DNA of 64,000 nucleotides from Escherichia coli (GTDB lineage: Bacteria > Pseudomonadota > Gammaproteobacteria > Enterobacterales > Enterobacteriaceae), in the NCBI RefSeq assembly GCF_030384885.1, contig NZ_CP128613.1, one strand, 5' to 3'. Each line of letters opens with the position of its first letter. The first letter of the stretch is position 1. The translations under genes and the position numbers were made by a program. Positions 26,762 through 59,672 of the stretch are shown here, one piece after another. The notes beneath the pieces are model-generated. The model had not been told where the DNA came from. It searched no databases and was given only the letters and a program-made list of their open reading frames with translations.

Positions 26762-27217
26762 TCATTCGCTACGGCGGGCAATAATTTTTAGCGCAGCAAT
26801 ATTATGCGTTTTACGCCGTAACTGATCCAACCGTCTCATCCCTATTCGCCTGTCAGCGGCACGCAGAATATTCACTAACCCCCATTTATCGCTGGTAAAT
26901 TGTTTCGTTAACAGCTCCGCTTTTGGGGTATCAATATATTCACGCAATAAATCAGAAATTGAACAAATATCCGTCAGATAAGGATACCAGCAAGTTTCAC
27001 CATGAAAATTACGCACTCCACCATTGCCTGCCATAAAGTCTTTTGGGTAATCCCAGATCACGTCTTTATCCAACGTGATCCAATAACGCGGTAAATCGGT
27101 GCTTCCACCATTTTGGCTGCGCATGGGATAACGGGTACAGTGAATTTGCAGGTTGATCGTTGGCGTCAGTAAGTCATAAATCTCCCTCTGTAACTTGCTC
27201 CAGGGGCGTTGTGTCAT
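26762..27217 (-). CDS. Hypothetical cytoplasmic protein, 151 aa, unassigned family
   Basis: [35 protein letters not shown]...; no signal peptide or TM segment; its ATG (27215-27217) overlaps the stop of the upstream ORF as ATGA. Confidence 0.6.
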
Positions 27218-29493
27218 TGTTTTTCCTCAAGCCGATTACGCGCTTCACTGCGAATTTGCCGCGTTGCCCCGGTTTTCACTAAATCACGTAACTGCGAAAG
27301 ATCGGGCTGATCGACAAATAAGATTAATGATGGATCCTCTTTTAACCACGCCGTTTTCACATCGGCAGCCAACTGTGGATTATTAATAGCCAGCGCCCGA
27401 TCCTGTGACTCAGTCAATGTCGTTAACAAAGAGGCTGGGGTATGTACATTGCGCAACGCCGTCTGCCGCAAATGATCATTGTGACTTTTCAGCAATCCGC
27501 ACCACCATTCATCATCTGATTTATCTTTTATCGTATCCAGCTCCGCAAAAATATCGCTTTCCTCATGATTCCAGCGGTGTAATCCTCTTTCACTTTGTCT
27601 ACGGGTGCTATTTTTCATACTGACAATAGACAACGCCCAGTCGGAGTTAAAACGATACTGTTGATCGAGTTTGTTGATAATTCCGGAGGGTAAATCTTTA
27701 TTATCAAATAACTGGTTTCGCATCCGATAGCGGTATTCAGCAGGTAAATAAACCAGTAAATCGATAGCATTATTAAGCATCTCTTCGTCAATAATACCAT
27801 TATCAATCAGCGCCAGCTGTACTTCGTAGGCTTGCTCTTGATCTTCTTGCCGTTTACTCATCATTAATTTTAAGGTGTGTTGCCATAATTGTTTCTTATA
27901 CTCCAGAGGTAACAATTTATCGCGTGCCAGCTCATACCAGATGCTGGGAATGTCATGCTGATTCAGTAGATAACTAATCACTTCCTTCGAGGTCAGATAA
28001 CGCATGCCGTCACGTAAGTTGTGCACATCTTCTTTTGCCAAAGTCAGTTGACGCGACTCCGGCAAAGCGACCAATAACGCCTTCACGATATTTTTATTTT
28101 CTTTATTATCCAGATACATTTGTTCTGCGATACGTTCAACATCCTCTGTCCTCAGGGTCGCTGACAGTTGGGTGATTTTTAGTTCAGTAAGCGTCCGGGC
28201 TAATGCTTGACGAACTTTCAGCGATTTATCTTTACTCAACAACACCGCTTGTTGTGCGGTTAAATCGGTTCCGGTAATTCTTTCGCGTAACTCCGGATCT
28301 TCGCTATTTATCAATTCATCAACCACTGCAGTTGGAACCAGCCAGGCGTAATCGTAATGGCTGATTAATGTCTTGCGCACACTGAGAAAAGGGCTTTGAC
28401 TTAACGACACAACAATATCAGGAGAAAGATTATCCTGTCTGGCCTGCTCCAGCTGTACGCTCTCGACGGGTACAGACATTAATTTTTTATTCACTTCGGC
28501 GGATATATTGCTGTTTTTAACCAGTCCTCTGGCAACAGCTTCATCTTTAATTAATTCATCGGTAAGCAAATGCATGTGTTGAGCAGGCCAGGACTGCGCC
28601 ATTGATTCACGCGTCTGGTCATCAGGGTGCTGTAACAATTGCAGCATAACGGCGGTTGACAAACTTTCTATATGAGTCAGAAAACGTGCCACCAGTGGAT
28701 CTTCATGCTTTATTTTATCCGCAAGGAAATTATCGAGTTTCCCCGTTTCAATCCATTGTAATTTCTCATTAATTTCAGAAGCAGCTTTATCTCGAAAAAG
28801 AGGTAAACCCTGAACGATATTGTCTACGACGCTATCATAGTCAGGATACGCATTGGAAATATTATCGGTTTCGATTTCACTATGATCATAAAGATTAGGC
28901 GTCACCAGTGAATAGGATTTTTGAATATTCTCGTCCCAGTTATATTCTTCACCGCTTTCATCTTCATTGATATAAAACTCAGCTTTGATGACCTCAAATT
29001 GCGTTGCTTTATCGGAAACAATAATGCCTCGCGCGCTAATTCCTTTCATCACTTCAAAGTTGTGATCATTATAATCAGCATAAACCAAACCTTTCGCTGT
29101 CATCTGACCTTTCACATACGCGAAATCATGATTAATAAAGTTGTCGACAATAACATTACCTAATACAATCAGATGACCATTACCTGACAGATAATCATCA
29201 TAATCGCCGGAAATCGTTAAATTACCGTTCACCACCAGTTTATTTTGATTGCTGAAGTTAGCGGGTAATGATAGGTCACCATTATGATAATACCAGCGGA
29301 TATTATCTTTTAGCATATAAGCAGCTTCCATACTATCGTTGGTTGCCGCTTTAACCACGTTGCGCTCATCTGCCGTCATAAGATGAAAGTCAGAGGTGAT
29401 AAGGTCCTCGCTACTGATCCACTCTATGGCACATGCATTGCCAGTCATAAAAAACACGACCATACAGATGACCAATATATTAATTCTATTCAT
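27214..29493 (-). CDS. Hypothetical exported repeat protein, ~759 aa, unassigned family
   Basis: Long uninterrupted ORF; ATG at 29491-29493 gives [22 protein letters not shown], a Sec-type signal with an AXA-like cleavage site (an in-frame GTG lies 3 codons upstream at 29502). Coding DNA is visibly AT-rich compared with neighbours. Confidence 0.8.
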
Positions 29494-29636
29494 AATCTTC
29501 ACTGATATTTATATCAACCTTGATGAATTATGAATATATCGGAAATCGAAAAAATCGCAGCAAAGGAAATATTATTATGGGTTAAAGAGAGGATATTTCA
29601 GAAAAATGCCCTCCCGTTCAAGGGGAAGGCGGGGAA

Positions 29637-29921
29637 TTACAGATAGCGGCACAGATAAGAGGTAGGTTCGGCAACTTGCAGATGAAACTCACTGTGACCG
29701 GGAACATGAAATACCGAACCGGCTTCGTACACTTGCCAGTCGGTCGCGTCAGGCAGTAACACATTCAGCGCGCCACTGATTACCGTCATCTCTTCCGGTT
29801 CAGCGGTGCTGAAGGTGTATTCGCCTTCAACCATAACACCTACGCTGGCGCGGCCAGTGCTACTGCTGGAAAAGCCGATCGATTTCACTTTGCCGGAAAA
29901 GTACTCATTACTTTGAAGCAT
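29637..29921 (-). CDS. ppnP: Pyrimidine/purine nucleoside phosphorylase PpnP (YaiE)
   Basis: 94-aa [40 protein letters not shown]... Confidence 0.92.
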
Positions 29922-36451: not shown

Positions 36452-36712
36452 TTACTGACGAGGATGCTTCAATAACTTCTTTACATAATCGCGCAGCAGC
36501 TCCGTATCGTCGTCAGGAATGCTGGCATCGGGCTTTACCTCGTAAAGTGCCCCCTCAACCTGATCAATCAACCGCTGTTGGTCATTTTGCGCCATATTAC
36601 GAAGCATTGCAGTGACGATAATCTCCAGTGCTTCTACCTGCGCGCACAGTTCTTTCGACTCTTCTTCTTTTTGGGCAAGCTTAAATAACAACTCAGCAAT
36701 GAGATTTTTCAT
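36452..36712 (-). CDS. iraP: Anti-adaptor protein IraP
   Basis: 86-aa [35 protein letters not shown]... Confidence 0.9.
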
Positions 36713-37174
36713 GTCTGTATTTCCTTATCCAAAGTATGGAGAAGTTAACATTATGCTTCACAACTTCATAGTGTCTGGAGGTAGTATTTTTATGACGAAT
36801 GAAATACTTTGCGCAAATATTTTTTCCATATTTATCAGCGAAACGTTTCTCTTATTTAAATAAGTAACCATACAAAGTATAGGTTTTTAATTATCAACCT
36901 TTATTATAAGTAAAAGTTATGAAATATATTCTCTTTGCTAACTTATAATTAAGAGAAAAAAACTCACTGCATGGCCATTTAAACCAGGAATAAATTAGCT
37001 TCCCGTTCATCATTTTTGTGATCTTGCGCACATCTTTGAGATAACGCACTTTCTTCACCAGTACGTTGCACACTTTGTCAGTAGAAGATTGCAACATTCT
37101 GTCAGAAGGCCGCGAATCCCCCGTTTTGTCGTGGTAATGTATGCACTTTGTGTTAGACGGGATAGGTTTTCAAG

Positions 37175-38269
37175 ATGGAAAAACTGCGGGTAGGAATCGT
37201 TTTTGGTGGTAAATCAGCGGAACATGAAGTGTCTTTGCAATCGGCAAAAAACATTGTCGATGCCATTGATAAAAGTCGCTTCGACGTTGTGCTGCTGGGC
37301 ATTGATAAACAAGGGCAATGGCACGTCAGCGATGCCAACAATTATCTGCTAAATGCAGACGATCCTGCCCATATTGCGTTGCGCCCTTCGGCGACCAGTC
37401 TTGCGCAGGTGCCTGGTAAACATGAGCATCAGCTTATCGACGCACAAAACGGTCAGCCATTGCCGACGGTGGATGTCATTTTCCCGATTGTTCACGGTAC
37501 GCTAGGCGAAGATGGTTCCTTGCAGGGAATGCTGCGGGTCGCCAATTTACCGTTTGTGGGTTCTGATGTTTTGGCGTCAGCGGCCTGTATGGATAAAGAT
37601 GTCACCAAACGTCTGCTACGCGATGCCGGGCTGAACATTGCGCCATTTATTACCCTGACACGCACCAATCGTCAAAACATCAGTTTTGCCGAAGTGAAGT
37701 CAAAACTGGGGTTACCGCTGTTTGTAAAACCCGCTAACCAAGGCTCTTCTGTTGGTGTCAGCAAAGTAACCAGTGAAGAAGAGTACGCAATTGCCGTCGA
37801 TCTGGCGTTCGAGTTCGATCATAAAGTGATCGTTGAGCAAGGGATCAAAGGTCGTGAGATCGAATGCGCGGTTCTGGGCAACGACAATCCGCAAGCCAGT
37901 ACCTGTGGCGAGATCGTACTAACCAGCGATTTCTATGCCTACGACACCAAGTACATTGACGAAGATGGCGCGAAAGTGGTGGTTCCGGCAGCCATTACGC
38001 CTGAAATTAACGATAAGATCCGGGCAATTGCCGTTCAGGCTTATCAAACGTTGGGTTGCGCAGGCATGGCGCGTGTAGACGTGTTTTTAACCCCAGAGAA
38101 CGAAGTGGTAATCAACGAGATCAACACACTGCCAGGCTTCACCAACATCAGTATGTATCCGAAGCTGTGGCAAGCCAGCGGTTTGGGTTACACCGACCTG
38201 ATCACACGTCTGATCGAGTTGGCGCTGGAGCGTCACGCTGCGGATAACGCATTGAAAACCACAATGTAA
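37175..38269 (+). CDS. ddlA: D-alanine--D-alanine ligase A
   Basis: 364-aa [36 protein letters not shown]..., ATP-grasp. Confidence 0.95.
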
Positions 38270-42965: not shown

Positions 42966-43652
<687 letters not shown>

Positions 43653-43653
43653 T

Positions 43654-46623
<2,970 letters not shown>

Positions 46624-47148
46624 TTGTCATCCCTCCTCAGGGACGTAATAAGTTGATCCATCAATTATCAATGCATAGAAAACATCTTATGTTTCGCGTT
46701 GACGATTATGCGGCGTTATAGAGGAATGGTTCAATTATTCTTTCCCCGAAGTCCGGTTACGGACATATATAAAGCACGGAGAAACACACAAAGAAAAAAT
46801 TGATGAAATCCTAATTTTTCAACAAGTTAACAGGAGTTCCATTTTTAAAGCATATGCATTTAAAATATCAAACACACAAACCAGACAAATAATCTATCAA
46901 TAACCAATGAACTTTAAATCATTCTGTTTTTGATAACGCAATCAAATCCGTAAAAACAATAATCTATAGCTATAAATAAAAATTAAAAATATTTTCAATG
47001 AATATAAATTTATTGCTATTTCTATTACAAAGATGTCCTGACCTCTCATTCATTCTCTTCTTGTCAACATCGCGACAACTTTCGTAAAACATCCCCACCC
47101 TGCTTCAGGTATACTATGCCCCTCGATTCCACAAACATCAGGCAGACC

Positions 47149-48123
47149 ATGACAGATTTAATCCAACGCCCTCGTCGCCTGCGCAAATCTCCTGCGCTGC
47201 GCGCTATGTTTGAAGAGACAACACTTAGCCTTAACGACCTGGTGTTGCCGATCTTTGTTGAAGAAGAAATTGACGACTACAAAGCCGTTGAAGCCATGCC
47301 AGGCGTGATGCGCATTCCAGAGAAACATCTGGCACGCGAAATTGAACGCATCGCCAACGCCGGTATTCGTTCCGTGATGACTTTCGGCATCTCTCACCAT
47401 ACCGATGAAACCGGCAGCGATGCCTGGCGGGAAGATGGTCTGGTGGCGCGTATGTCGCGCATCTGCAAGCAGACCGTGCCAGAAATGATCGTTATGTCAG
47501 ACACCTGCTTCTGTGAATACACATCTCACGGTCACTGCGGTGTGCTGTGCGAGCATGGCGTGGACAACGACGCGACCCTGGAAAATTTAGGCAAGCAGGC
47601 CGTGGTTGCAGCTGCTGCAGGTGCAGACTTCATCGCCCCTTCCGCCGCAATGGATGGCCAGGTACAAGCGATTCGCCAGGCGCTGGACGCTGCGGGCTTT
47701 AAAGATACGGCGATCATGTCGTATTCGACCAAGTTCGCCTCTTCCTTTTATGGTCCGTTCCGTGAAGCTGCCGGAAGCGCATTAAAAGGCGACCGCAAAA
47801 GTTATCAGATGAACCCAATGAACCGTCGCGAGGCGATTCGTGAGTCACTGCTGGATGAAGCCCAGGGCGCAGACTGCCTGATGGTTAAACCAGCCGGAGC
47901 GTACCTCGACATCGTGCGTGAGCTGCGTGAGCGTACTGAATTGCCGATTGGTGCGTATCAGGTGAGCGGTGAGTACGCGATGATTAAGTTCGCCGCGCTG
48001 GCGGGTGCTATAGATGAAGAGAAAGTCGTGCTCGAAAGCTTAGGTTCAATTAAGCGTGCGGGTGCGGATCTGATTTTCAGCTACTTTGCGCTGGATCTGG
48101 CTGAGAAGAAGATTCTGCGTTAA
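47149..48123 (+). CDS. hemB: Porphobilinogen synthase
   Basis: 324 aa from ATG 47149, [37 protein letters not shown]... Confidence 0.95.
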
Positions 48124-51879: not shown

Positions 51880-52509
51880 ATGATTAGGGTTGTGCTGGTG
51901 GATGACCATGTGGTGGTGCGCTCTGGCTTCGCACAATTACTCTCTCTGGAAGACGATCTGGAGGTCATTGGTCAGTACAGTTGTGCCGCGCAGGCATGGT
52001 CGGCATTAACTCATAATGACGTTAATGTTGCCGTCATTGATATCGCCATGCCGGACGAAAATGGCCTCAGTCTGCTTAAGCGTCTGCGTGCACAAAAACC
52101 GCAATTCCGCGCCATTATTCTTAGCATTTATGACACGCCAACCTTTGTACAAAGCGCTCTGGATGCTGGTGCCAGCGGCTATTTGACCAAACGCTGTGGG
52201 CCGGAAGAGTTAGTGCAGGCGGTGCGCTCGGTCGGGATGGGCGGGCATTATCTCTGCGCCGATGCAATTCGGGCTTTACGCGGCGGCGAGCAACCCGCCC
52301 AGGCGCTGGAAATTCTCACCCCACGAGAACGTGAAGTGTTTGATTTATTAGTCAAAGGCGACAGTGTAAAAGAGATCGCCTTTAAGCTCGAACTCAGCCA
52401 TAAAACGGTACATGTACATCGCGCCAACGTGCTGGGAAAACTGAACTGTCATAGCACCATTGAGCTGGTGCATTTTGCACTCAATCACCATCTGCTGGCG
52501 GGGCATTAA
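51880..52509 (+). CDS. NarL/FixJ-family response regulator, UhpA-like
   Basis: 209-aa ORF MIRVVLVDDHVVVRSGFAQLL... plus C-terminal LuxR helix-turn-helix (KTVHVHRANVLGKL); closely resembles UhpA as I recall it. Confidence 0.85.
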   Translation: MIRVVLVDDHVVVRSGFAQLLSLEDDLEVIGQYSCAAQAWSALTHNDVNVAVIDIAMPDENGLSLLKRLRAQKPQFRAIILSIYDTPTFVQSALDAGASGYLTKRCGPEELVQAVRSVGMGGHYLCADAIRALRGGEQPAQALEILTPREREVFDLLVKGDSVKEIAFKLELSHKTVHVHRANVLGKLNCHSTIELVHFALNHHLLAGH

Positions 52510-54050
52510 TGTCGCGTAACCTTCGTCATTGGGTGATTTCGCTGTTTATTGTGCTGGCCTGGGGAAGCGGCTGGCTGATGTTGTGGACGCTCAGCTTTTA
52601 TCTGACCAATAACGGTCAACAGGCAGTGTTATTTCTGCCGCACGGAGTTTACCTCGCTCTTCTTATTTTGCTCTCTCGCCGTTACTGGCCTGCGTTGGTG
52701 CTCCCCCCTTTGCTGATGATGTTCTGGCTGCACAGCGAGCAACTGTTGAACGGCTATCTCATGCTGGCAACGCCGGTTATTAGCCTGCTTCCTGCCATCC
52801 TTGCACAAAACGTCTGGCACCGTTTTCCACTTTACTGGCAGCGTCTGACGTTGCTGCTAGCCTCAGTAACAGCAGCTTCATTGCTGAATACAGCCATGCT
52901 AACCCCTTTTATGTCAGGCCCAATAATGCTGCCCGGTCTGACCTCATTTACCGGCGGCGTATTGTTGACGCCGTTTGTCTATCTCATCTTTGAGTTTCTG
53001 CGCCAGCAGCATCGCTATCAGCTTCTGAGACTCGATACGCATAATCCCCCCTTGCGAACCTCTTTAATCATCTGGTGTAGCCTATTTTTTATTATTGGTA
53101 TCGGCACCCAGATGGTGTTGTCGCCTGAAATCGAACGCCTGCTGCTGATCGTGGTATTTCTACCCAATGTGGTCATGGCCTGGAAATTTGGCTGGCAAGG
53201 TGGCGTACTCTCGGGGCTTTTGGGCAGCATGATGATCACTATTGCCCGCCAGATTGGCGTGGGCTTTAGTAACCTGGTGGAACTGGAGATTTTTCTCGCA
53301 ACCCAGGCATTGCTGGGAATTGGCCTGGGCATTGCCATCAGTCGCCAGCAACATCTGGCGCTAAACCTGCATCATTACCGTCAGCGACTGGAGGCAGAAC
53401 TGGCAGCACGGCGGGCATTGGCTGAAAAGCTGATCCACACCGAGGAAGACACGCGTAAAAGCCTGGCTCGCGAGCTGCACGACGAAATCGGTCAGAACAT
53501 TACCGCCATTCAGATCCAGTCGCAACTGGTGACGCGGGCACGCGATCCGGCGCAAGTTCATTCCGCAGCTAGCCAAATCAACGAACTCGCCCGCCGCATT
53601 CATCTCTCCACCCGCCAGTTGCTGCGCCAGTTGCGGCCACCCGCGCTTGATGAACTGACATTCCGCGAAGCATTACTTCATCTGATTAATGAATTTGCCT
53701 TTAGTGAACGCGGCATTCATTGCCAGTTTACCTATCAACTAACCACCACGCCAGAAAACGAAACGGTTCGCTTTACACTGTATCGGTTATTGCAGGAGTT
53801 ACTCAATAACGTCTGTAAACACGCCGAAGCCAGCGAAGTGACGATTATTCTGCGCCAGCAGGGAGAGATATTGCACCTGGAGGTCAGCGACAACGGTATA
53901 GGAATCGCCAGCGGGAAAATGACCGGATTTGGCATTCAGGGGATGCGTGAACGCGTCAGTGCCCTGGGCGGCGACTTAACGCTCGAAAAACATAACGGTA
54001 CGCGAGTAATTGTTAACCTGCCCACATTTTTGCAACAAATCGCCGGATAA
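52509..54050 (+). CDS. Sensor histidine kinase, UhpB-like
   Basis: 513-aa ORF: multi-TM N-terminal domain, H-box ELHDEIGQ (HisKA_3 type), C-terminal ATPase; start overlaps the regulator stop (TAATG). Confidence 0.85.
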   Translation: MSRNLRHWVISLFIVLAWGSGWLMLWTLSFYLTNNGQQAVLFLPHGVYLALLILLSRRYWPALVLPPLLMMFWLHSEQLLNGYLMLATPVISLLPAILAQNVWHRFPLYWQRLTLLLASVTAASLLNTAMLTPFMSGPIMLPGLTSFTGGVLLTPFVYLIFEFLRQQHRYQLLRLDTHNPPLRTSLIIWCSLFFIIGIGTQMVLSPEIERLLLIVVFLPNVVMAWKFGWQGGVLSGLLGSMMITIARQIGVGFSNLVELEIFLATQALLGIGLGIAISRQQHLALNLHHYRQRLEAELAARRALAEKLIHTEEDTRKSLARELHDEIGQNITAIQIQSQLVTRARDPAQVHSAASQINELARRIHLSTRQLLRQLRPPALDELTFREALLHLINEFAFSERGIHCQFTYQLTTTPENETVRFTLYRLLQELLNNVCKHAEASEVTIILRQQGEILHLEVSDNGIGIASGKMTGFGIQGMRERVSALGGDLTLEKHNGTRVIVNLPTFLQQIAG

Positions 54051-54122
54051 CCAGGAAAAAGTCTTAGGCATCCCGGATTTTCTCTCATCCTCTTTCACTT
54101 TCATTTTCATATAGTCAGCAAC

Positions 54123-55439
54123 ATGGAGACGACCATGCACGCGCGTTCAGCGAGAGAGATTAATCAATGCTACCGGACATTACGTCCGCGATTGCTGATG
54201 TGCATGATTATTGGCTACGCCGCATTTTATCTGACGCGAAAAAGCGTGAATTACGTCCTTCCGGCGCTGCAAACCGACCTCGGACTGGATAAAGGCGACA
54301 TTGGCCTGCTGGGTTCGCTGTTTTATCTCAGCTACGGATTGTCGAAATTTACCGCCGGACTGTGGCATGACAGCCACGGACAACGCGGTTTTATGGGCAT
54401 CGGCTTGTTCGCCACTGGGCTATTGAACGTGGTGTTTGCCTTTGGCGAATCACTTACGCTTCTGCTTGTGGTCTGGACACTGAACGGATTTTTTCAAGGC
54501 TGGGGGTGGCCACCGTGTGCCCGCTTACTGACCCATTGGTACTCCCGTAATGAACGTGGTTTCTGGTGGGGCTGCTGGAATATGTCGATCAACATTGGCG
54601 GAGCGATTATTCCGCTGATTAGCGCCTTTGCCGCCCACTGGTGGGGCTGGCAGGCCGCGATGCTGACACCGGGGATTATCAGCATGGCATTAGGGATCTG
54701 GTTAACGCTACAGCTTAAAGGCACACCCCAGGAAGAGGGATTACCGACGGTGGGTCAGTGGCGTCACGATCCGCTGGAATTACGTCAGGAACAACAAAGT
54801 CCGCCGATGGGTCTGTGGCAAATGTTGCGCACCACAATGCTGCAAAATCCGATGATCTGGCTGCTGGGTGTCTCTTATGTACTGGTTTATGTGATCCGGA
54901 TTGCGTTAAACGACTGGGGCAATATCTGGCTGACGGAAAGCCACGGCGTCAACCTACTCAGCGCCAACGCCACGGTAATGCTGTTTGAAGTGGGCGGCTT
55001 ACTCGGCGCGTTATTTGCCGGATGGGGTTCGGATTTGCTGTTTAGCGGGCAGCGAGCCCCCATGATTTTGCTGTTTACCCTTGGGTTGATGGTTTCGGTC
55101 GCTGCACTCTGGTTGGCACCGGTTCATCACTATGCCCTTCTGGCTGTGTGCTTTTTTACTGTGGGCTTTTTTGTCTTTGGCCCGCAAATGCTGATTGGAC
55201 TTGCGGCAGTGGAATGTGGACACAAAGCTGCGGCGGGTTCAATCACCGGATTTCTCGGTCTGTTCGCCTATCTCGGTGCGGCGCTGGCAGGCTGGCCGTT
55301 GTCGCTGGTTATCGAACGCTACGGCTGGTCGGGAATGTTCAGTTTACTCTCGGTCGCCGCAGTACTTATGGGTTTACTGCTGATGCCGTTACTGATGGCG
55401 GGCATCACCACCACTCACGCTCGAAGGATAAAACAATGA
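54123..55439 (+). CDS. MFS organophosphate:phosphate antiporter-family protein, UhpC-like
   Basis: 438-aa 12-TM-like ORF; follows the UhpA/UhpB-like pair in uhpABC order. Confidence 0.8.
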   Translation: METTMHARSAREINQCYRTLRPRLLMCMIIGYAAFYLTRKSVNYVLPALQTDLGLDKGDIGLLGSLFYLSYGLSKFTAGLWHDSHGQRGFMGIGLFATGLLNVVFAFGESLTLLLVVWTLNGFFQGWGWPPCARLLTHWYSRNERGFWWGCWNMSINIGGAIIPLISAFAAHWWGWQAAMLTPGIISMALGIWLTLQLKGTPQEEGLPTVGQWRHDPLELRQEQQSPPMGLWQMLRTTMLQNPMIWLLGVSYVLVYVIRIALNDWGNIWLTESHGVNLLSANATVMLFEVGGLLGALFAGWGSDLLFSGQRAPMILLFTLGLMVSVAALWLAPVHHYALLAVCFFTVGFFVFGPQMLIGLAAVECGHKAAAGSITGFLGLFAYLGAALAGWPLSLVIERYGWSGMFSLLSVAAVLMGLLLMPLLMAGITTTHARRIKQ

Positions 55440-56467
55440 AAATGCCCCTTACCTCTACTCTGATTGCTTCTGCCGTTGCGCTGGCAACCTTAACGGGTGC
55501 CGCACAAGCGAAAGGTCGACTGGTGGTCTATTGCAGCGCCACTAATGAAATGTGTGAGACCGAAACCAAAGCGTTTGGCGAGAAATATGATGTGAAAACC
55601 TCGTTTATCCGCAACGGCTCCGGTAGCACCCTGGCAAAAGTCGATGCTGAAAAGAAAAACCCACAGGCTGACGTCTGGTACGGCGGCACCTTAGACCCGC
55701 AGTCGCAGGCCGGCGAGATGGGCCTGTTACAGGCATATAAATCGCCTAACCTTGAACAGATCATGGAAAAATTCCGCGATCCGGCAAAAGTGAAAGGAAA
55801 CCTTTCCTCCGCCGTTTATGTGGGGATCCTCGGGTTTGGCGTCAACACAGAGCGTCTGAAAGAGAAAAACCTGCCTGTGCCGAAGTGCTGGAAAGATCTC
55901 ACCAAACCTGAATATAAAGGCGAAATTCAGATTGCCGATCCACAAAGTTCCGGTACCGCCTACACCGCGCTGGCTACCTTTGCGCAGCTGTGGGGGGAAG
56001 ATCAGGCCTTTGATTATCTAAAACAACTGAACGCCAACGTCTCCCAGTACACCAAATCAGGCATAGCCCCGGCACGTAACGCCGCCCGTGGCGAAACGGC
56101 GATTGGTATTGGCTTCCTGCATGACTACTCGCTGGAAAAAGAACAGGGCGCGCCGCTGGAGTTGATTTCCCCGTGTGAAGGTACGGGCTACGAAATTGGC
56201 GGCGTCAGCATTCTGAAAGGCGCGCGCAACCTCGACAACGCCAAACTGTTTGTGGACTGGGTATTATCAAAAGAAGCTCAGGAACTGGCGTGGAAGAAAG
56301 GGAAGTCTTATCAGATCCTGACCAATACCACCGCCGAAACGTCGCCAAATTCGCTGAAGCTCGACGACCTGAAATTAATCAACTACGACATGGATAAATA
56401 CGGTTCAACTGATGTTCGTAAGGCATTAATTAATAAATGGGTCAGCGAAGTGAAGATGGGTAAATAA
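55436..56467 (+). CDS. afuA: ABC transporter periplasmic substrate-binding protein (AfuA/FbpA family)
   Basis: 343 aa from ATG 55436 (ATGA overlap with upstream stop); signal MKMPLTSTLIASAVALATLTGAAQA; the track ORF 55148.. is an upstream over-extension. Confidence 0.85.
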   Translation: MKMPLTSTLIASAVALATLTGAAQAKGRLVVYCSATNEMCETETKAFGEKYDVKTSFIRNGSGSTLAKVDAEKKNPQADVWYGGTLDPQSQAGEMGLLQAYKSPNLEQIMEKFRDPAKVKGNLSSAVYVGILGFGVNTERLKEKNLPVPKCWKDLTKPEYKGEIQIADPQSSGTAYTALATFAQLWGEDQAFDYLKQLNANVSQYTKSGIAPARNAARGETAIGIGFLHDYSLEKEQGAPLELISPCEGTGYEIGGVSILKGARNLDNAKLFVDWVLSKEAQELAWKKGKSYQILTNTTAETSPNSLKLDDLKLINYDMDKYGSTDVRKALINKWVSEVKMGK

Positions 56468-56535
56468 ACCCGCATTGCGTGCACTTGCCGGGTGCAGCAC
56501 AGACGCCTGCCCCGGCCAACCATACCGGAACTGCT

Positions 56536-58614
56536 ATGTCACAGACACTTGCACTCCATCCCGCGAAAAAGCGGGATGCGATTTTCCTTTGGGTTTTGCT
56601 GGGCTGGCTGGCATTTATCCTGTTGCCGAGCTGGAGTCTCGATTATGGTCTGCTGGAGTCCACGAGTGATGAGATCCTCGAGGCGTACAGCTGGTCGCAT
56701 TTTAATATCAGCTGGCTGTGGTATTTACTCCCGAGTTTGCTGCTGGTTCGCCCGTTTAATGAGGCCAAACGCGAGCAGCGTAGCCGTCATTATTTTGATG
56801 CAGGCTGGGCATTGCTTTGTATAGCGTTTATGGTCATCAGTGCCACCATCGTTGGCCGCGGTCTAGGCTACGCCGCCATCGTGCTGTTTATCGAATTAAG
56901 CGCGATAATGACGCTGGCCTTAACCCGCCTCGAATGGCTGGGTGGCGACCGCTTTGTGATCGGCTCGCTGATTGCGATTGTGGCGCTGATTGGCATTTTT
57001 ATCGTCTGGCCGAGCATCGCCATTTTTATCCCGATGTTCACCAACGACGCGGGAGGGTTCGCCCCACTGGCGTTTATGAATGTGCTCTCGCAGGCACATA
57101 TTGTTCAGGTGATCGTCAACTCCATCGTCTTATCGATAGCGGTGGGTATTGGCTGTACTTTCTTCGGTCTGGTGCTGGCGATATATACCACGCGCATCGC
57201 TAAACGCAGCGCAGTAATCGGCCGCATCTTTTCCATTCTGCCAATTGTCACGCCACCGTTTGTGGTCGGCTTAGGCGTTACGCTCATGATGGGGCGCTCC
57301 GGCTACATAACGGAATTTATGGTGGAGTGGTTTGGGCTGACCAACACCAACTGGCTGTATGGTTTTACCGGGATCTGGCTGGCACAGGTCCTGGCATTTA
57401 CGCCAATGGCTTTTATGATCCTCGATGGGGCCATTAAAACCATTCATCCCTCGCTGGAAGAAGCCTCCTACACCCTGCGCGCCAGCCGCTGGCAAACCTT
57501 TAACGGTGTGTTTGTGCCGTTGTTAAAGCCCGCGCTTGCCAATGCCTTTTTAATCGTCGTGGTACAGTCACTGGCTGACTTCAGTAACCCGCTGGTGCTT
57601 GGCGGCAACTTCGACGTACTGGCGACGCAAATTTACTTCTACATTACCGGCTCGCAGCTGGATTATCAGGCCGCCAGCACCCTTGGCGCTTTCCTGCTGC
57701 TGTTCTCGCTACTGGTGTTCTGCGTCCAGTATATGTGGATTGGTAAACGCTCTTACGTCACGGTTTCCGGAAAGTCCTACCGCGGCGATGTCCAGCCACT
57801 ACCGGTCACCCTGGTGTGGAGCGTGGTCGCCATACTTGCGATATGGATTGCCTTTAACGCCCTGCTCTATGGCAGCATTTTCTACGGCAGCTTCACCGTG
57901 AACTGGGGCGTAGACTACACCCTAACGCTGGATAACTTTATCAAGTTATTTGGTCAGGGGATGAGCGACGGCGCATGGCCTTCACTGTTAGATACCTTGC
58001 TCTACGCCGGGATTGCCGCACCCATTACCGCTATTTTTGGCCTGCTCATCGCCTGGGTGGTGGTGCGCCAACAATTCAAAGGCAAAAAGACCATCGAGTT
58101 CACCACCATGTTGTGCTTTGCCGTACCGGGTACAGTGGCGGGTGTCTCGTATATTCTTGCCTTTAATAGCGCCCCAGTCTATCTCACCGGAACGGCAGCA
58201 ATTGTGATTATCTCGATGGTGATGCGCAACGTTCCGGTGGGTATTCGCGCCGGGATTGCAGGTCTGGGGCAGATCGACAAATCGCTGGATGAAGCCTCAC
58301 TTAGCCTGCGTGCGGGTTCCCTGCGAACCATTACGCACATTTTACTGCCGTTGTTACGCCCAGCTATTCTCTCGGCCCTGATTTACAGCTTTGTGCGGGC
58401 TATCACGACGGTCAGCGCCATCGTCTTTCTCGTCACGCCGGACACACGCGTGGCAACCGCCTACATCCTTAACCGCGTAGAAGACGGCGAATATGGCGTA
58501 GCCATCGCCTACGGTTCGATTCTGATCGTGGTGATGCTGGCGATTATTTTCCTCTTTGACTGGCTGATCGGTGAAGCACGTATTTCCCGTTCTAAAGCCA
58601 AAAACCAGGCGTAA
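56536..58614 (+). CDS. afuB: ABC transporter fused permease (AfuB/FbpB family)
   Basis: 692 aa from ATG 56536 (track's GTG at 56479 is possible); two tandem permease domains. Confidence 0.85.
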
Positions 58615-58625
58615 TGGAGCGCACT

Positions 58626-59672
58626 ATGAGTCAGAAAAATTTTGTGGAACTGCGCAACGTCACTAAACGATTCGGCAGTAATACGGTTATCGACAATATC
58701 AATCTCACCATCCCACAAGGGCAAATGGTGACGCTGCTCGGTCCTTCCGGATGCGGCAAAACCACCATTCTGCGTCTGGTTGCCGGGCTGGAAAAACCGA
58801 GCGAAGGGCAAATTTTTATAGATGGCGAAGATGTCACGCATCGTTCCATTCAGCAACGCGATATCTGCATGGTGTTTCAGTCATACGCTCTGTTCCCACA
58901 TATGTCGCTGGGCGAAAACGTTGGCTATGGGTTGAAAATGCTTGGCGTGTCGCGTAGTGAAGTGAAGCAGCGGGTGAAAGATGCGCTAGCAATGGTGGAT
59001 CTGGAAGGATTCGAAGACCGCTATGTCGACCAGATTTCCGGTGGTCAGCAACAGCGTGTGGCTCTGGCCCGTGCGTTGATCCTTAAGCCTAAAGTGCTGC
59101 TGTTTGATGAGCCGTTAAGTAACCTCGATGCCAACCTGCGTCGCAGCATGCGCGATAAAATCCGCGAGCTGCAAAAGCAATTTAACATCACTTCGCTCTA
59201 TGTGACTCACGATCAAAGTGAAGCTTTCGCGGTGTCCGACACCGTGTTGGTGATGAATAAAGGTCACATCATGCAAATTGGCTCGCCGCAGGATCTCTAT
59301 CGTCAGCCCGCCTCCCGCTTTATGGCAAGTTTTATGGGCGACGCCAACCTGTTCCCGGCGAACTTTAGCGAAGAGTATGTCGATATCTACGGTTATCGCC
59401 TGCCGCGCGCGGCGCATTTCCCGGCGCAAGGTAGCGGCACCGTCGGCGTTCGCCCGGAAGCCATCACCTTAAGCAATCACGGCGAAGAGAGTCAGCGTTG
59501 TGTTATTCGCCATGTCGCCTACATGGGGCCGCAGTACGAAGTGACCGTAGAATGGCATGGTCAGGAGATTTTATTGCAAGTCAACGCCACCCGTTTACAG
59601 CCCGATATTGGTGAACACTATTACCTCGAAATCCATCCTTACGGGATGTTTGTTTTAGCGGATGCGGCATAA
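58626..59672 (+). CDS. afuC: ABC transporter ATP-binding protein (AfuC/FbpC family)
   Basis: 348 aa from ATG 58626, [16 protein letters not shown]...; Walker [10 protein letters not shown], signature [15 protein letters not shown]. Confidence 0.9.

Follow-up and report, generated by a model that had tools for sequence, protein, structure and literature searches.

The AT-rich spacer between ehaB and hemB of Escherichia coli: a probable H-NS-silenced control region joined to the short hemB promoter

The adhesin gene ehaB and the gene hemB of Escherichia coli diverge from an AT-rich intergenic spacer, which very probably combines the H-NS-silenced control region of ehaB with the short promoter of hemB. 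Judged from its orthologs, the spacer is almost certainly of a type already described, the H-NS-silenced control region of an adhesin gene, and is hence ordinary. A hypervariable core lying beside a conserved promoter and leader gives modest new leads.

In the proposed mechanism, the AT-rich core would most probably load H-NS (and StpA) by virtue of its composition, and from there H-NS filaments would spread across a weak sigma-70 promoter into the AT-poorer 5' part of ehaB. The adhesin EhaB would thereby remain off in laboratory culture, and raised c-di-GMP or similar signals could lift the silencing, by analogy with Salmonella yaiU. hemB is served by a conserved promoter of its own, about 80 bp long, at the far edge of the spacer, the rest of which it does not require. 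H-NS binding and repression are known from papers on orthologs, from which we infer that they hold for this allele; the transcription start site and the spreading mechanism are likewise predicted.

Boundaries, composition and three-part anatomy of the spacer

The window, by which the whole analysed stretch of 64,000 nucleotides from contig NZ_CP128613.1 is meant, matches E. coli 2013C-4282 (NZ_CP027579.1) at 100%. In the RefSeq annotation, hemB occupies positions 47149-48123 of the plus strand. Because ehaB, on the minus strand, reaches up to 46623 and hemB begins at 47149, the spacer spans exactly 46624-47148 (Table 1). Its counterpart in MG1655 lies at NC_000913.3 389,728-390,250. It is the longest annotated intergenic gap of the window, the runners-up being 406, 351 and 302 bp long, and its GC content of 33.7% lies below the 43.4% of the window's intergenic DNA taken together and the 50.9% of the window as a whole. 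Segments of 525 bp that are equally AT-rich account for only 0.26% of those in the window, and all of them overlap the spacer itself. The window minimum among 200-bp stretches is found at 46835-47034 (GC 21.5%), and the long A/T run quoted in an earlier sequence-only reading of this DNA maps to 46970-47016. That reading had described an AT-rich divergent gap of 525 bp, the longest non-coding stretch of the window, and had proposed a windowed GC calculation; the annotation bears out the description, and the calculation identifies the spacer as the most AT-rich stretch of the window. It had also named the gene yaiT. The locus and the gene are the same, but yaiT of K-12 is a pseudogene, ehaB split by IS3, whereas the allele in the window is intact and encodes an EhaB of 982 amino acids.

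Table 1. Features of the ehaB-hemB spacer and its neighbors (positions are those of the window)
Feature	Position	Strand	Description	Basis
iprA	42966..43589	-	CRP/FNR-like regulator	HTH_46 domain and weak cNMP-binding domain
ehaB	43675..46623	-	intact AIDA-type autotransporter adhesin, 982 aa	RefSeq annotation, PF03797 beta-domain
ehaB-hemB divergent intergenic region	46624..47148	.	525 bp, GC 33.7%	RefSeq annotation and composition
ehaB 5' leader, predicted	46624..46698	-	about 75 nt	position relative to the -10 hexamer
anti-SD/SD hairpin CGUCCCU-GAGG-AGGGAUG	46628..46645	-	6 nt upstream of the ehaB AUG
short hairpin UUGA-UGGA-UCAA	46653..46664	-	GGA in the loop
small hairpin near the leader 5' end, AAACAU-aag-AUGUUU	46680..46694	-		weak support
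ehaB -10 hexamer, predicted, CATAAT	46705..46710	-	inside invariant GCATAAT	invariant in 44/44 sequences
ehaB -35 hexamer, predicted, TTGAAC	46729..46734	-		invariant in 44/44 sequences
inverted repeat GTCCGgttaCGGAC, candidate transcription-factor site	46751..46764	.	5-4-5; GTCCG-N4-CGGAC	centre near -59.5
AT-rich core	46770..47069	.	300 bp, GC 26%; putative H-NS nucleation/silencing tract
hemB promoter and 5' UTR	47070..47148	+	about 79 bp, GC about 50-51%	conservation with or without ehaB

To place the spacer in a comparative frame, hemB loci were fetched from 80 species, in 39 of which an ortholog of ehaB faces hemB. A conservation profile of 42 sequences, made up of these 39 loci, a Salmonella locus and another two alleles from E. 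coli, splits the spacer into a conserved ehaB-proximal block (46624-46769; about 146 bp, nearly invariant), a stretch that is not conserved (46770-47069) and a conserved hemB-proximal block (47070-47148). Of the 525 bp, about 225 consist of conserved sequence, promoter and leader, and not of AT-rich spacer. The hemB-proximal block, which contains a -10-like TATACT at 47110-47115, is kept in both classes of locus, including the genera without ehaB, and is therefore assigned to hemB as its own promoter and leader. Strain 4848 agrees with this assignment: an IS1-associated deletion took ehaB and everything to the left of 47097, and hemB is annotated as intact. Some 50-80 bp of the spacer apparently suffice for hemB.

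The AT-rich spacer is found wherever ehaB adjoins hemB and is missing elsewhere. Where ehaB faces hemB (41 loci in 15 named genera), the spacer is 389-617 bp long with a GC content of 32-38%, apart from one at 44%; Salmonella is a sixteenth genus, with 513 bp and 34%. Where ampH abuts hemB, an arrangement seen in Klebsiella, Raoultella, Pantoea and some Citrobacter, the spacer measures roughly 100-160 bp as estimated from ORF calls, with a GC content of about 42-53%. iprA accompanies ehaB in all loci whose flank reaches that far. Because both the spacer type and iprA track ehaB, the unit consists of iprA, ehaB and about 446 bp of spacer, placed between ampH and hemB. The GC content of this unit (42966-47069) is 43.8%, and that of the flanking ampH and hemB is 54% each. 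Judged from gene order and composition, the AT-rich part belongs to ehaB.

The claim that the region holds no convincing ORF or RNA gene is sustained for its AT-rich part. An Rfam scan with a threshold of E<=10 had no relevant match, its two chance-level snoRNA matches (E 4-9) both lying outside the spacer, and no annotated feature lies beneath the core among the 25 E. coli records listed. Of 10 E. coli alleles, 8 share an open frame of 29 codons on the plus strand, at 46998-47087; as a small protein gene it was rejected, since its variable sites number 6, 11 and 8 at codon positions 1, 2 and 3, with no third-position bias, and since it has a frameshift in allele L008, a premature stop in O157 and no Shine-Dalgarno (SD) sequence. 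Other small ORFs in the spacer are not conserved among the E. coli alleles. An unannotated sRNA or small protein gene would give the long spacer a different cause, and the RefSeq locus tags do leave out one number between ehaB and hemB, as the open 29-codon frame would also suit. Against this, however, stand the empty Rfam scan, the codon-position pattern and lesions of the ORF, and a core that is unconserved across genera and, like the leader, present in a single copy per E. coli genome in a paralog search, so that such a gene has hardly any likelihood.

The AT-rich core and the probable H-NS silencing of ehaB

The composition of the core is kept while its sequence is not. Across the 42 sequences, the GC content of the core has a median of 28% and lies at 22-36% in 41 of them, low GC being retained in about 40 species, and its length lies between 164 and 392 bp. 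Cores from outside Escherichia have an identity of 0.47-0.63 to that of the window, which equals the level of shuffled sequence (0.45-0.59). TpA steps number 8.2 per 100 bp in the core versus 4.7 in the window. Among ten E. coli alleles, the pairwise difference per site is 0.219 in the core, compared with 0.009 in the leader, 0.079 in the ehaB promoter block, 0.086 in the hemB-proximal block and 0.036 in the hemB coding sequence. Of 5419 records from complete E. coli genomes, 3096 have a core that is 60-80% identical to that of the window, and only 36 reach 95% identity or more. Nevertheless, the length of the spacer within E. coli is confined to 522-525 bp, even though substitution in the core exceeds 20%. 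The core alleles do not follow the passenger-domain alleles; the EhaB of L008 is 97% identical and its core 69%. The locus offers a clean natural example of a silencer in which composition and length are conserved and sequence is not, adjoining one of the most conserved non-coding stretches of the locus, and the contrast between core and leader might serve for testing the evolution of H-NS-bound DNA.

H-NS-bound regulatory regions extend over hundreds of bp and have an AT content far above the genome average; intrinsic curvature and phased A-tracts are frequent in such regions and are not obligatory. The spacer contains an extended AT-rich tract of this kind, its core having a GC content of 26% as against 33.7% for the whole spacer and 50.9% for the window. 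The motif TCGATAAATT is a high-affinity nucleation site for H-NS. Four similar sequences occur in the spacer, each with two mismatches, at about five times the density in the window, which probably reflects composition. If H-NS loads here, it would do so through AT-richness and TpA steps.

Experimental work on orthologous loci supports silencing. The promoter of Salmonella yaiU is bound by H-NS in EMSA, ITC and ChIP-qPCR experiments, with Kd values by ITC of 0.29-0.46 uM across the four promoters tested, yaiU included (PMC10657408). The same study terms yaiU a previously reported H-NS-repressed gene and shows that H-NS occupancy at yaiU is reduced by c-di-GMP, L-arginine and bile salts; in the c-di-GMP-insensitive mutant hns(K107A), H-NS occupancy goes up and yaiU expression goes down (PMC10657408). 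yaiU is the former name of seaB, which adjoins hemB upstream of iprA and is the positional ortholog of ehaB (PMC13248724). Phenotypes of SeaB and EhaB appear only upon overexpression, for which the authors suggest repression in vitro as the reason (PMC13248724). EhaB is "also called UpaC", the two being alleles of one gene (PMC8281228), and a passage of PMC5012682, citing Allsopp 2012, counts UpaC among the H-NS-repressed autotransporters of UPEC.

Because H-NS work on the orthologs has been published, the silencing reading is both supported and already in the literature. The proposal that H-NS-type proteins silence a surface autotransporter here accordingly draws on yaiU/seaB for binding and repression and, through the passage cited, on upaC for repression. 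It also agrees with the comparative data, in which the AT-rich spacer accompanies ehaB. The finding as given matters little, since H-NS silencing has been published for Salmonella yaiU/seaB and UPEC upaC. The Salmonella result is carried over to this allele by inference through the homology of the promoters and the composition of the core; because the Salmonella core cannot be aligned with that of the window, the transfer at the level of the core is by composition alone. No co-mention of yaiT and H-NS was found in the literature searched. In a paper on excludons, yaiT is mentioned solely as a member of the yaiT-ytiB pair, which has no bearing on the spacer.

Mutational bias could account in part for the low GC content of a spacer under little constraint. 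It is also conceivable that the core is a passive remnant, made AT-rich by biased mutation and riding with the low-GC iprA-ehaB module, so that H-NS binding would be incidental and the off state would come from the weak promoter, a specific regulator and the leader. Such a remnant would fit a core that is unalignable between genera, varies from 164 to 392 bp and differs by 0.22 per site within E. coli as against 0.036 in the hemB coding sequence, and it would also fit the low GC content of the whole module from iprA to the core (43.8%) and the position of all conserved sequence blocks outside the core. However, the GC content of the core is, in 41 of 42 sequences, well under the 43% of the other intergenic DNA of the window, the length of the E. 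coli spacer is fixed despite heavy substitution, and both H-NS binding and regulation have been demonstrated experimentally at the orthologous promoter (PMC10657408). A passive remnant is therefore considered improbable, and H-NS silencing through the core is preferred.

The sequence-only reading had also expected curved DNA, and this part of it finds no backing in the model. Curvature was calculated as a wedge-model path, the code being checked on A-tract controls, in which phased A6 tracts score 35-38, out-of-phase tracts 7 and random DNA about 13 (maximum 22). The predicted curvature of the spacer is random-like, averaging 10 and peaking at 20, and its mean ranks only within the top 16% of 525-bp segments. 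A or T tracts of 4 bases or more number 11 in the spacer, roughly double the window density, and a long spacer might on that account be supposed to work by DNA shape, activating or looping the promoters through intrinsic curvature upstream of them. However, the number of tracts equals the composition-matched expectation, the tracts are unphased, and AA/TT periodicity at 10-11 bp does not rise above composition-matched simulations. Together with curvature values far from those of phased A6 tracts, this makes an effect of DNA shape very unlikely.

The predicted ehaB promoter, candidate operator and leader RNA

The hexamers of the predicted ehaB promoter are separated by a spacer that is always 18 nt long and variable in sequence in 44 of 44 sequences. 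A sigma-70 promoter is recognized by hexamers 16-19 bp apart that are conserved while the spacer between them drifts, and TTGAAC-18-CATAAT has these properties. From the position of the -10 hexamer, transcription of ehaB is predicted to start at 46697-46700 on the minus strand. The gap between the inverted repeat and the -35 hexamer is exactly 16 nt in all 44 sequences and varies in sequence. As a pattern of sequence conservation, such fixed hexamers and spacing are typical of a sigma-70 promoter accompanied by a phased operator.

Changes in the inverted repeat affect one arm and are not compensated in the other, a pattern more in keeping with a protein site than with an RNA helix. Its two 5-bp arms in fixed phase upstream of the -35 hexamer have, in 44 of 44 sequences, the geometry of a class I site of the CRP/FNR type, and because the centre of the repeat is near -59.5, a class I activator or a counter-silencer is plausible. 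IprA is a candidate for the cognate protein by adjacency and domain type only. The motif GTCCGN4CGGAC occurs nowhere else in the window that would hint at a regulon, and this sole copy is no more than expected by chance. The repeat is absent upstream of iprA at loci that keep iprA without ehaB.

The leader is the least variable part of the spacer in E. coli, where identity over an 86-nt leader segment reaches 95% or more for 5407 of 5408 records; across the sequences, the length of the leader is 60-85 nt. The anti-SD/SD hairpin is the sole consensus helix given by RNAalifold (-10.2 kcal/mol). It is paired in 98% of cells of the alignment, and the anti-SD segment UCCCU (46640-46644) is invariant in 38 of 38 leaders. 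Four of its seven pairs never vary, and the others undergo only one-sided changes, from G-U to A-U and from C-G to U-G. In the hairpin at 46653-46664, the loop GGA is present in 37 of 38 leaders, the register of the stem shifts between clades, and 76% of cells are paired. At the place of the small hairpin near the 5' end, other genera carry GCAAU...AUUGC; its median z-score is -1.2, with z < -2 in 32% of lineages. No compensatory changes were found in the two 3' hairpins among the 38 leaders, and shuffle controls were not exceeded. The fold of the whole leader is not unusually stable (z = -1.9), 12 of 200 shuffles being at least as stable. Two protein queries for more distant EhaB orthologs that could reveal covariation returned gene fragments only.

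An RNA thermometer is a helix that blocks the SD sequence and opens between about 30 and 42 C. The ehaB hairpin was rejected as such in silico: it stays closed from 20 to 45 C, with an unpaired probability of about 0 for the 3' half of the SD sequence, and on its own it has a folding energy of -10.9 kcal/mol and still -9.9 kcal/mol at 42 C. The SD sequence contains a second GGA, so that the motif content of CsrA-bound leaders, at least two GGA with one at the SD, is present at the sequence level only. The features of the leader resemble those of CsrA-type or other SD-sequestering leaders. In the literature searched, CsrA is co-mentioned with yaiT, yaiU, ehaB or upaC only in a few reviews and surveys, and the passages checked contain no regulatory link. 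The sequence-only reading had named a conserved structured RNA as a finding that would count against silencing. What emerges is a candidate leader hairpin, and because this cannot explain the AT core, the silencing reading is not refuted by it.

These elements raise the possibility that H-NS is complemented by further control: a regulator, with IprA as one candidate, would counter H-NS at the phased repeat, and the anti-SD hairpin with its GGA motifs, possibly through CsrA, would gate translation. The rigid geometry of the repeat, -35 and -10 elements in 44 of 44 sequences, the co-occurrence of ehaB with iprA and the HTH_46 and weak cNMP-binding domains of its product point to the regulator, and the invariant anti-SD segment, the stability of the hairpin, the two GGA motifs and the near identity of the leader in E. 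coli point to translational gating. Such a complement is nevertheless tentative, as no helix shows compensatory change, shuffles fold as well as the leader or better in 12 of 200 cases, the repeat occurs once in the window at chance level and is missing upstream of iprA where ehaB is absent, and the literature passages checked link none of these genes to CsrA. With similar reserve, it may be suggested that the spacer is an undescribed two-layer switch, composed of an operator module common to at least 16 genera, for which IprA is a candidate, and a leader that gates translation, though this is rather doubtful. If it were true, selection on the core would concern nothing but its composition and length, leaving its sequence free to drift apart by over 20% within one species; alternatively, the core could represent ancient alleles linked to the polymorphic passenger domain. 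By-products of the analysis for those working on EhaB, UpaC and SeaB are a likely promoter, a candidate operator and a candidate translation-blocking hairpin, all at single-base resolution.

Comparison with known systems

The upaC promoter region of UPEC strain CFT073 was reportedly treated by Allsopp et al. in 2012 (Infect Immun 80:321), a study reached through papers citing it. upaC of CFT073 shares its chromosomal locus and gene family with ehaB, and UpaC is described as H-NS-repressed in the relevant passage of PMC5012682. The upaC-type allele compared here, L006 (ST131) and not that of CFT073, also has a spacer of 525 bp, and its leader differs at only 2 positions, whereas its passenger domain is about 42% identical to that of the window and its AT core about 82%.

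SD-sequestering leaders include that of pgaA, which is bound by CsrA, and RNA thermometers. The ehaB leader is like these in having a conserved anti-SD/SD hairpin and two GGA motifs, and unlike them in having no Rfam match, no covariation and no melting at 20-45 C, so that the comparison indicates resemblance and not membership.

Also among the closest known systems is yaiU/seaB of Salmonella Typhimurium. Like ehaB, it adjoins hemB upstream of iprA with a spacer of similar length and composition (513 bp, GC 34%), and it has the same inverted repeat, -35 and -10 hexamers and leader, including the anti-SD hairpin. H-NS binding to it has been demonstrated by EMSA, ITC and ChIP-qPCR and is relieved by c-di-GMP (PMC10657408). 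In contrast, its AT core has no detectable similarity to that of the window, as judged from the cross-genus pattern, and the gene beyond hemB is that of an AMP-binding enzyme, whereas it is tauD in the window.

The genes upaG, upaH and those of F9 fimbriae, sslE and vat, which encode surface or secreted proteins of E. coli, are similar to ehaB in that they have AT-rich upstream regions, are silent in the laboratory and are derepressed in hns mutants (PMC5012682; PMC6956023; PMC12525524). They are not homologous loci. The ehaB-iprA module is no recent pathogenicity island but is common to at least 16 genera.

Conservation of the ehaB leader and the AT core

Two neighbouring non-coding stretches of the AT-rich spacer between ehaB, an autotransporter adhesin gene, and hemB show an extreme contrast in conservation over about 5,400 E. 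coli genomes. Of 5408 E. coli records, 5407 match the stretch covering the predicted ehaB 5' leader (46615-46700) with an identity of 95% or more, whereas the AT core (46770-47069) shows 60-80% identity in 3096 records. Despite this divergence of the AT core, the length of the spacer remains constant at 522-525 bp in E. coli. The leader carries an anti-SD/SD hairpin, which is invariant and has a computed stability of -10.9 kcal/mol. This hairpin has no match in Rfam and displays no covariation because sequence variation is nearly absent. One locus-tag number is missing between ehaB and hemB in RefSeq NZ_CP027579.1 and NZ_CP027548.1 (RS11900 to RS11910 and RS17305 to RS17315). This would fit a feature of the spacer (46624-47148) that was formerly called and later withdrawn.

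Coordinates and composition of sequence features in the window
Feature	Position	Strand	Context
Inverted repeat GTCCGnnnnCGGAC - 16 nt - TTGAAC - 18 nt - CATAAT	46705-46764	minus	upstream of ehaB
Anti-SD/SD hairpin CGUCCCU-GAGG-AGGGAUG	46628-46645	minus	6 nt upstream of the ehaB start codon
GC-rich strong hairpin GCCCGTCAA...TTGACGGGC	43590-43674		85-bp ehaB-iprA gap
Hypothetical CDS, 67 aa	36894-37097		inside the AT-rich iraP-ddlA stretch

Promoter block and the iprA-ehaB-spacer module

The distances between the inverted repeat, TTGAAC and CATAAT upstream of ehaB are constant in all 44 ehaB-type upstream regions compared, which represent at least 16 genera, and the sequence in between drifts. 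This block looks like a candidate operator and promoter that has not been described previously.

The CRP/FNR-like regulator gene iprA, ehaB and the AT-rich spacer (42966-47069; about 4.1 kb, with a low GC content of 43.8%) behave as a single module, which lies between ampH and hemB and follows a presence/absence pattern across Enterobacteriaceae. Remnants of the module are found in some lineages, namely S. diarizonae (locus L024) and Phytobacter ursingii (L067), in which ehaB is degraded and the promoter is still there. The hairpin in the gap between ehaB and iprA looks like a putative terminator, and this suggests that the two genes are transcribed as separate units.

The ehaB locus has been hit repeatedly by insertion sequences. 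IS3B lies within yaiT, the ehaB counterpart of K-12 (L002), and an IS3-family element is located 606 nt into ehaB in strain W46 (L088). In strain 4848 (L007), an IS1 element replaces ehaB together with the spacer as far as 52 bp upstream of hemB.

Other regions of the window

The region between iraP and ddlA (36662-37186; GC 33.9%) is the second in AT-richness within the window, and its GC content falls to 24.5% at 36783-36982. A low-GC block between rdgC and ppnP (26762-29763; 36-41% GC in 525-bp windows) spans the gene for a 759-aa DUF2773 protein and an SF0329-family gene. The tauA-frmR interval (51880-59672) contains a cluster of genes for a response regulator, a MASE1 histidine kinase and a UhpC-like receptor, together with a three-gene ABC transporter having an fbpC-like ATPase. 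The corresponding position in K-12 is presumably occupied by yaiO, yaiX, IS2, yaiP and yaiS.
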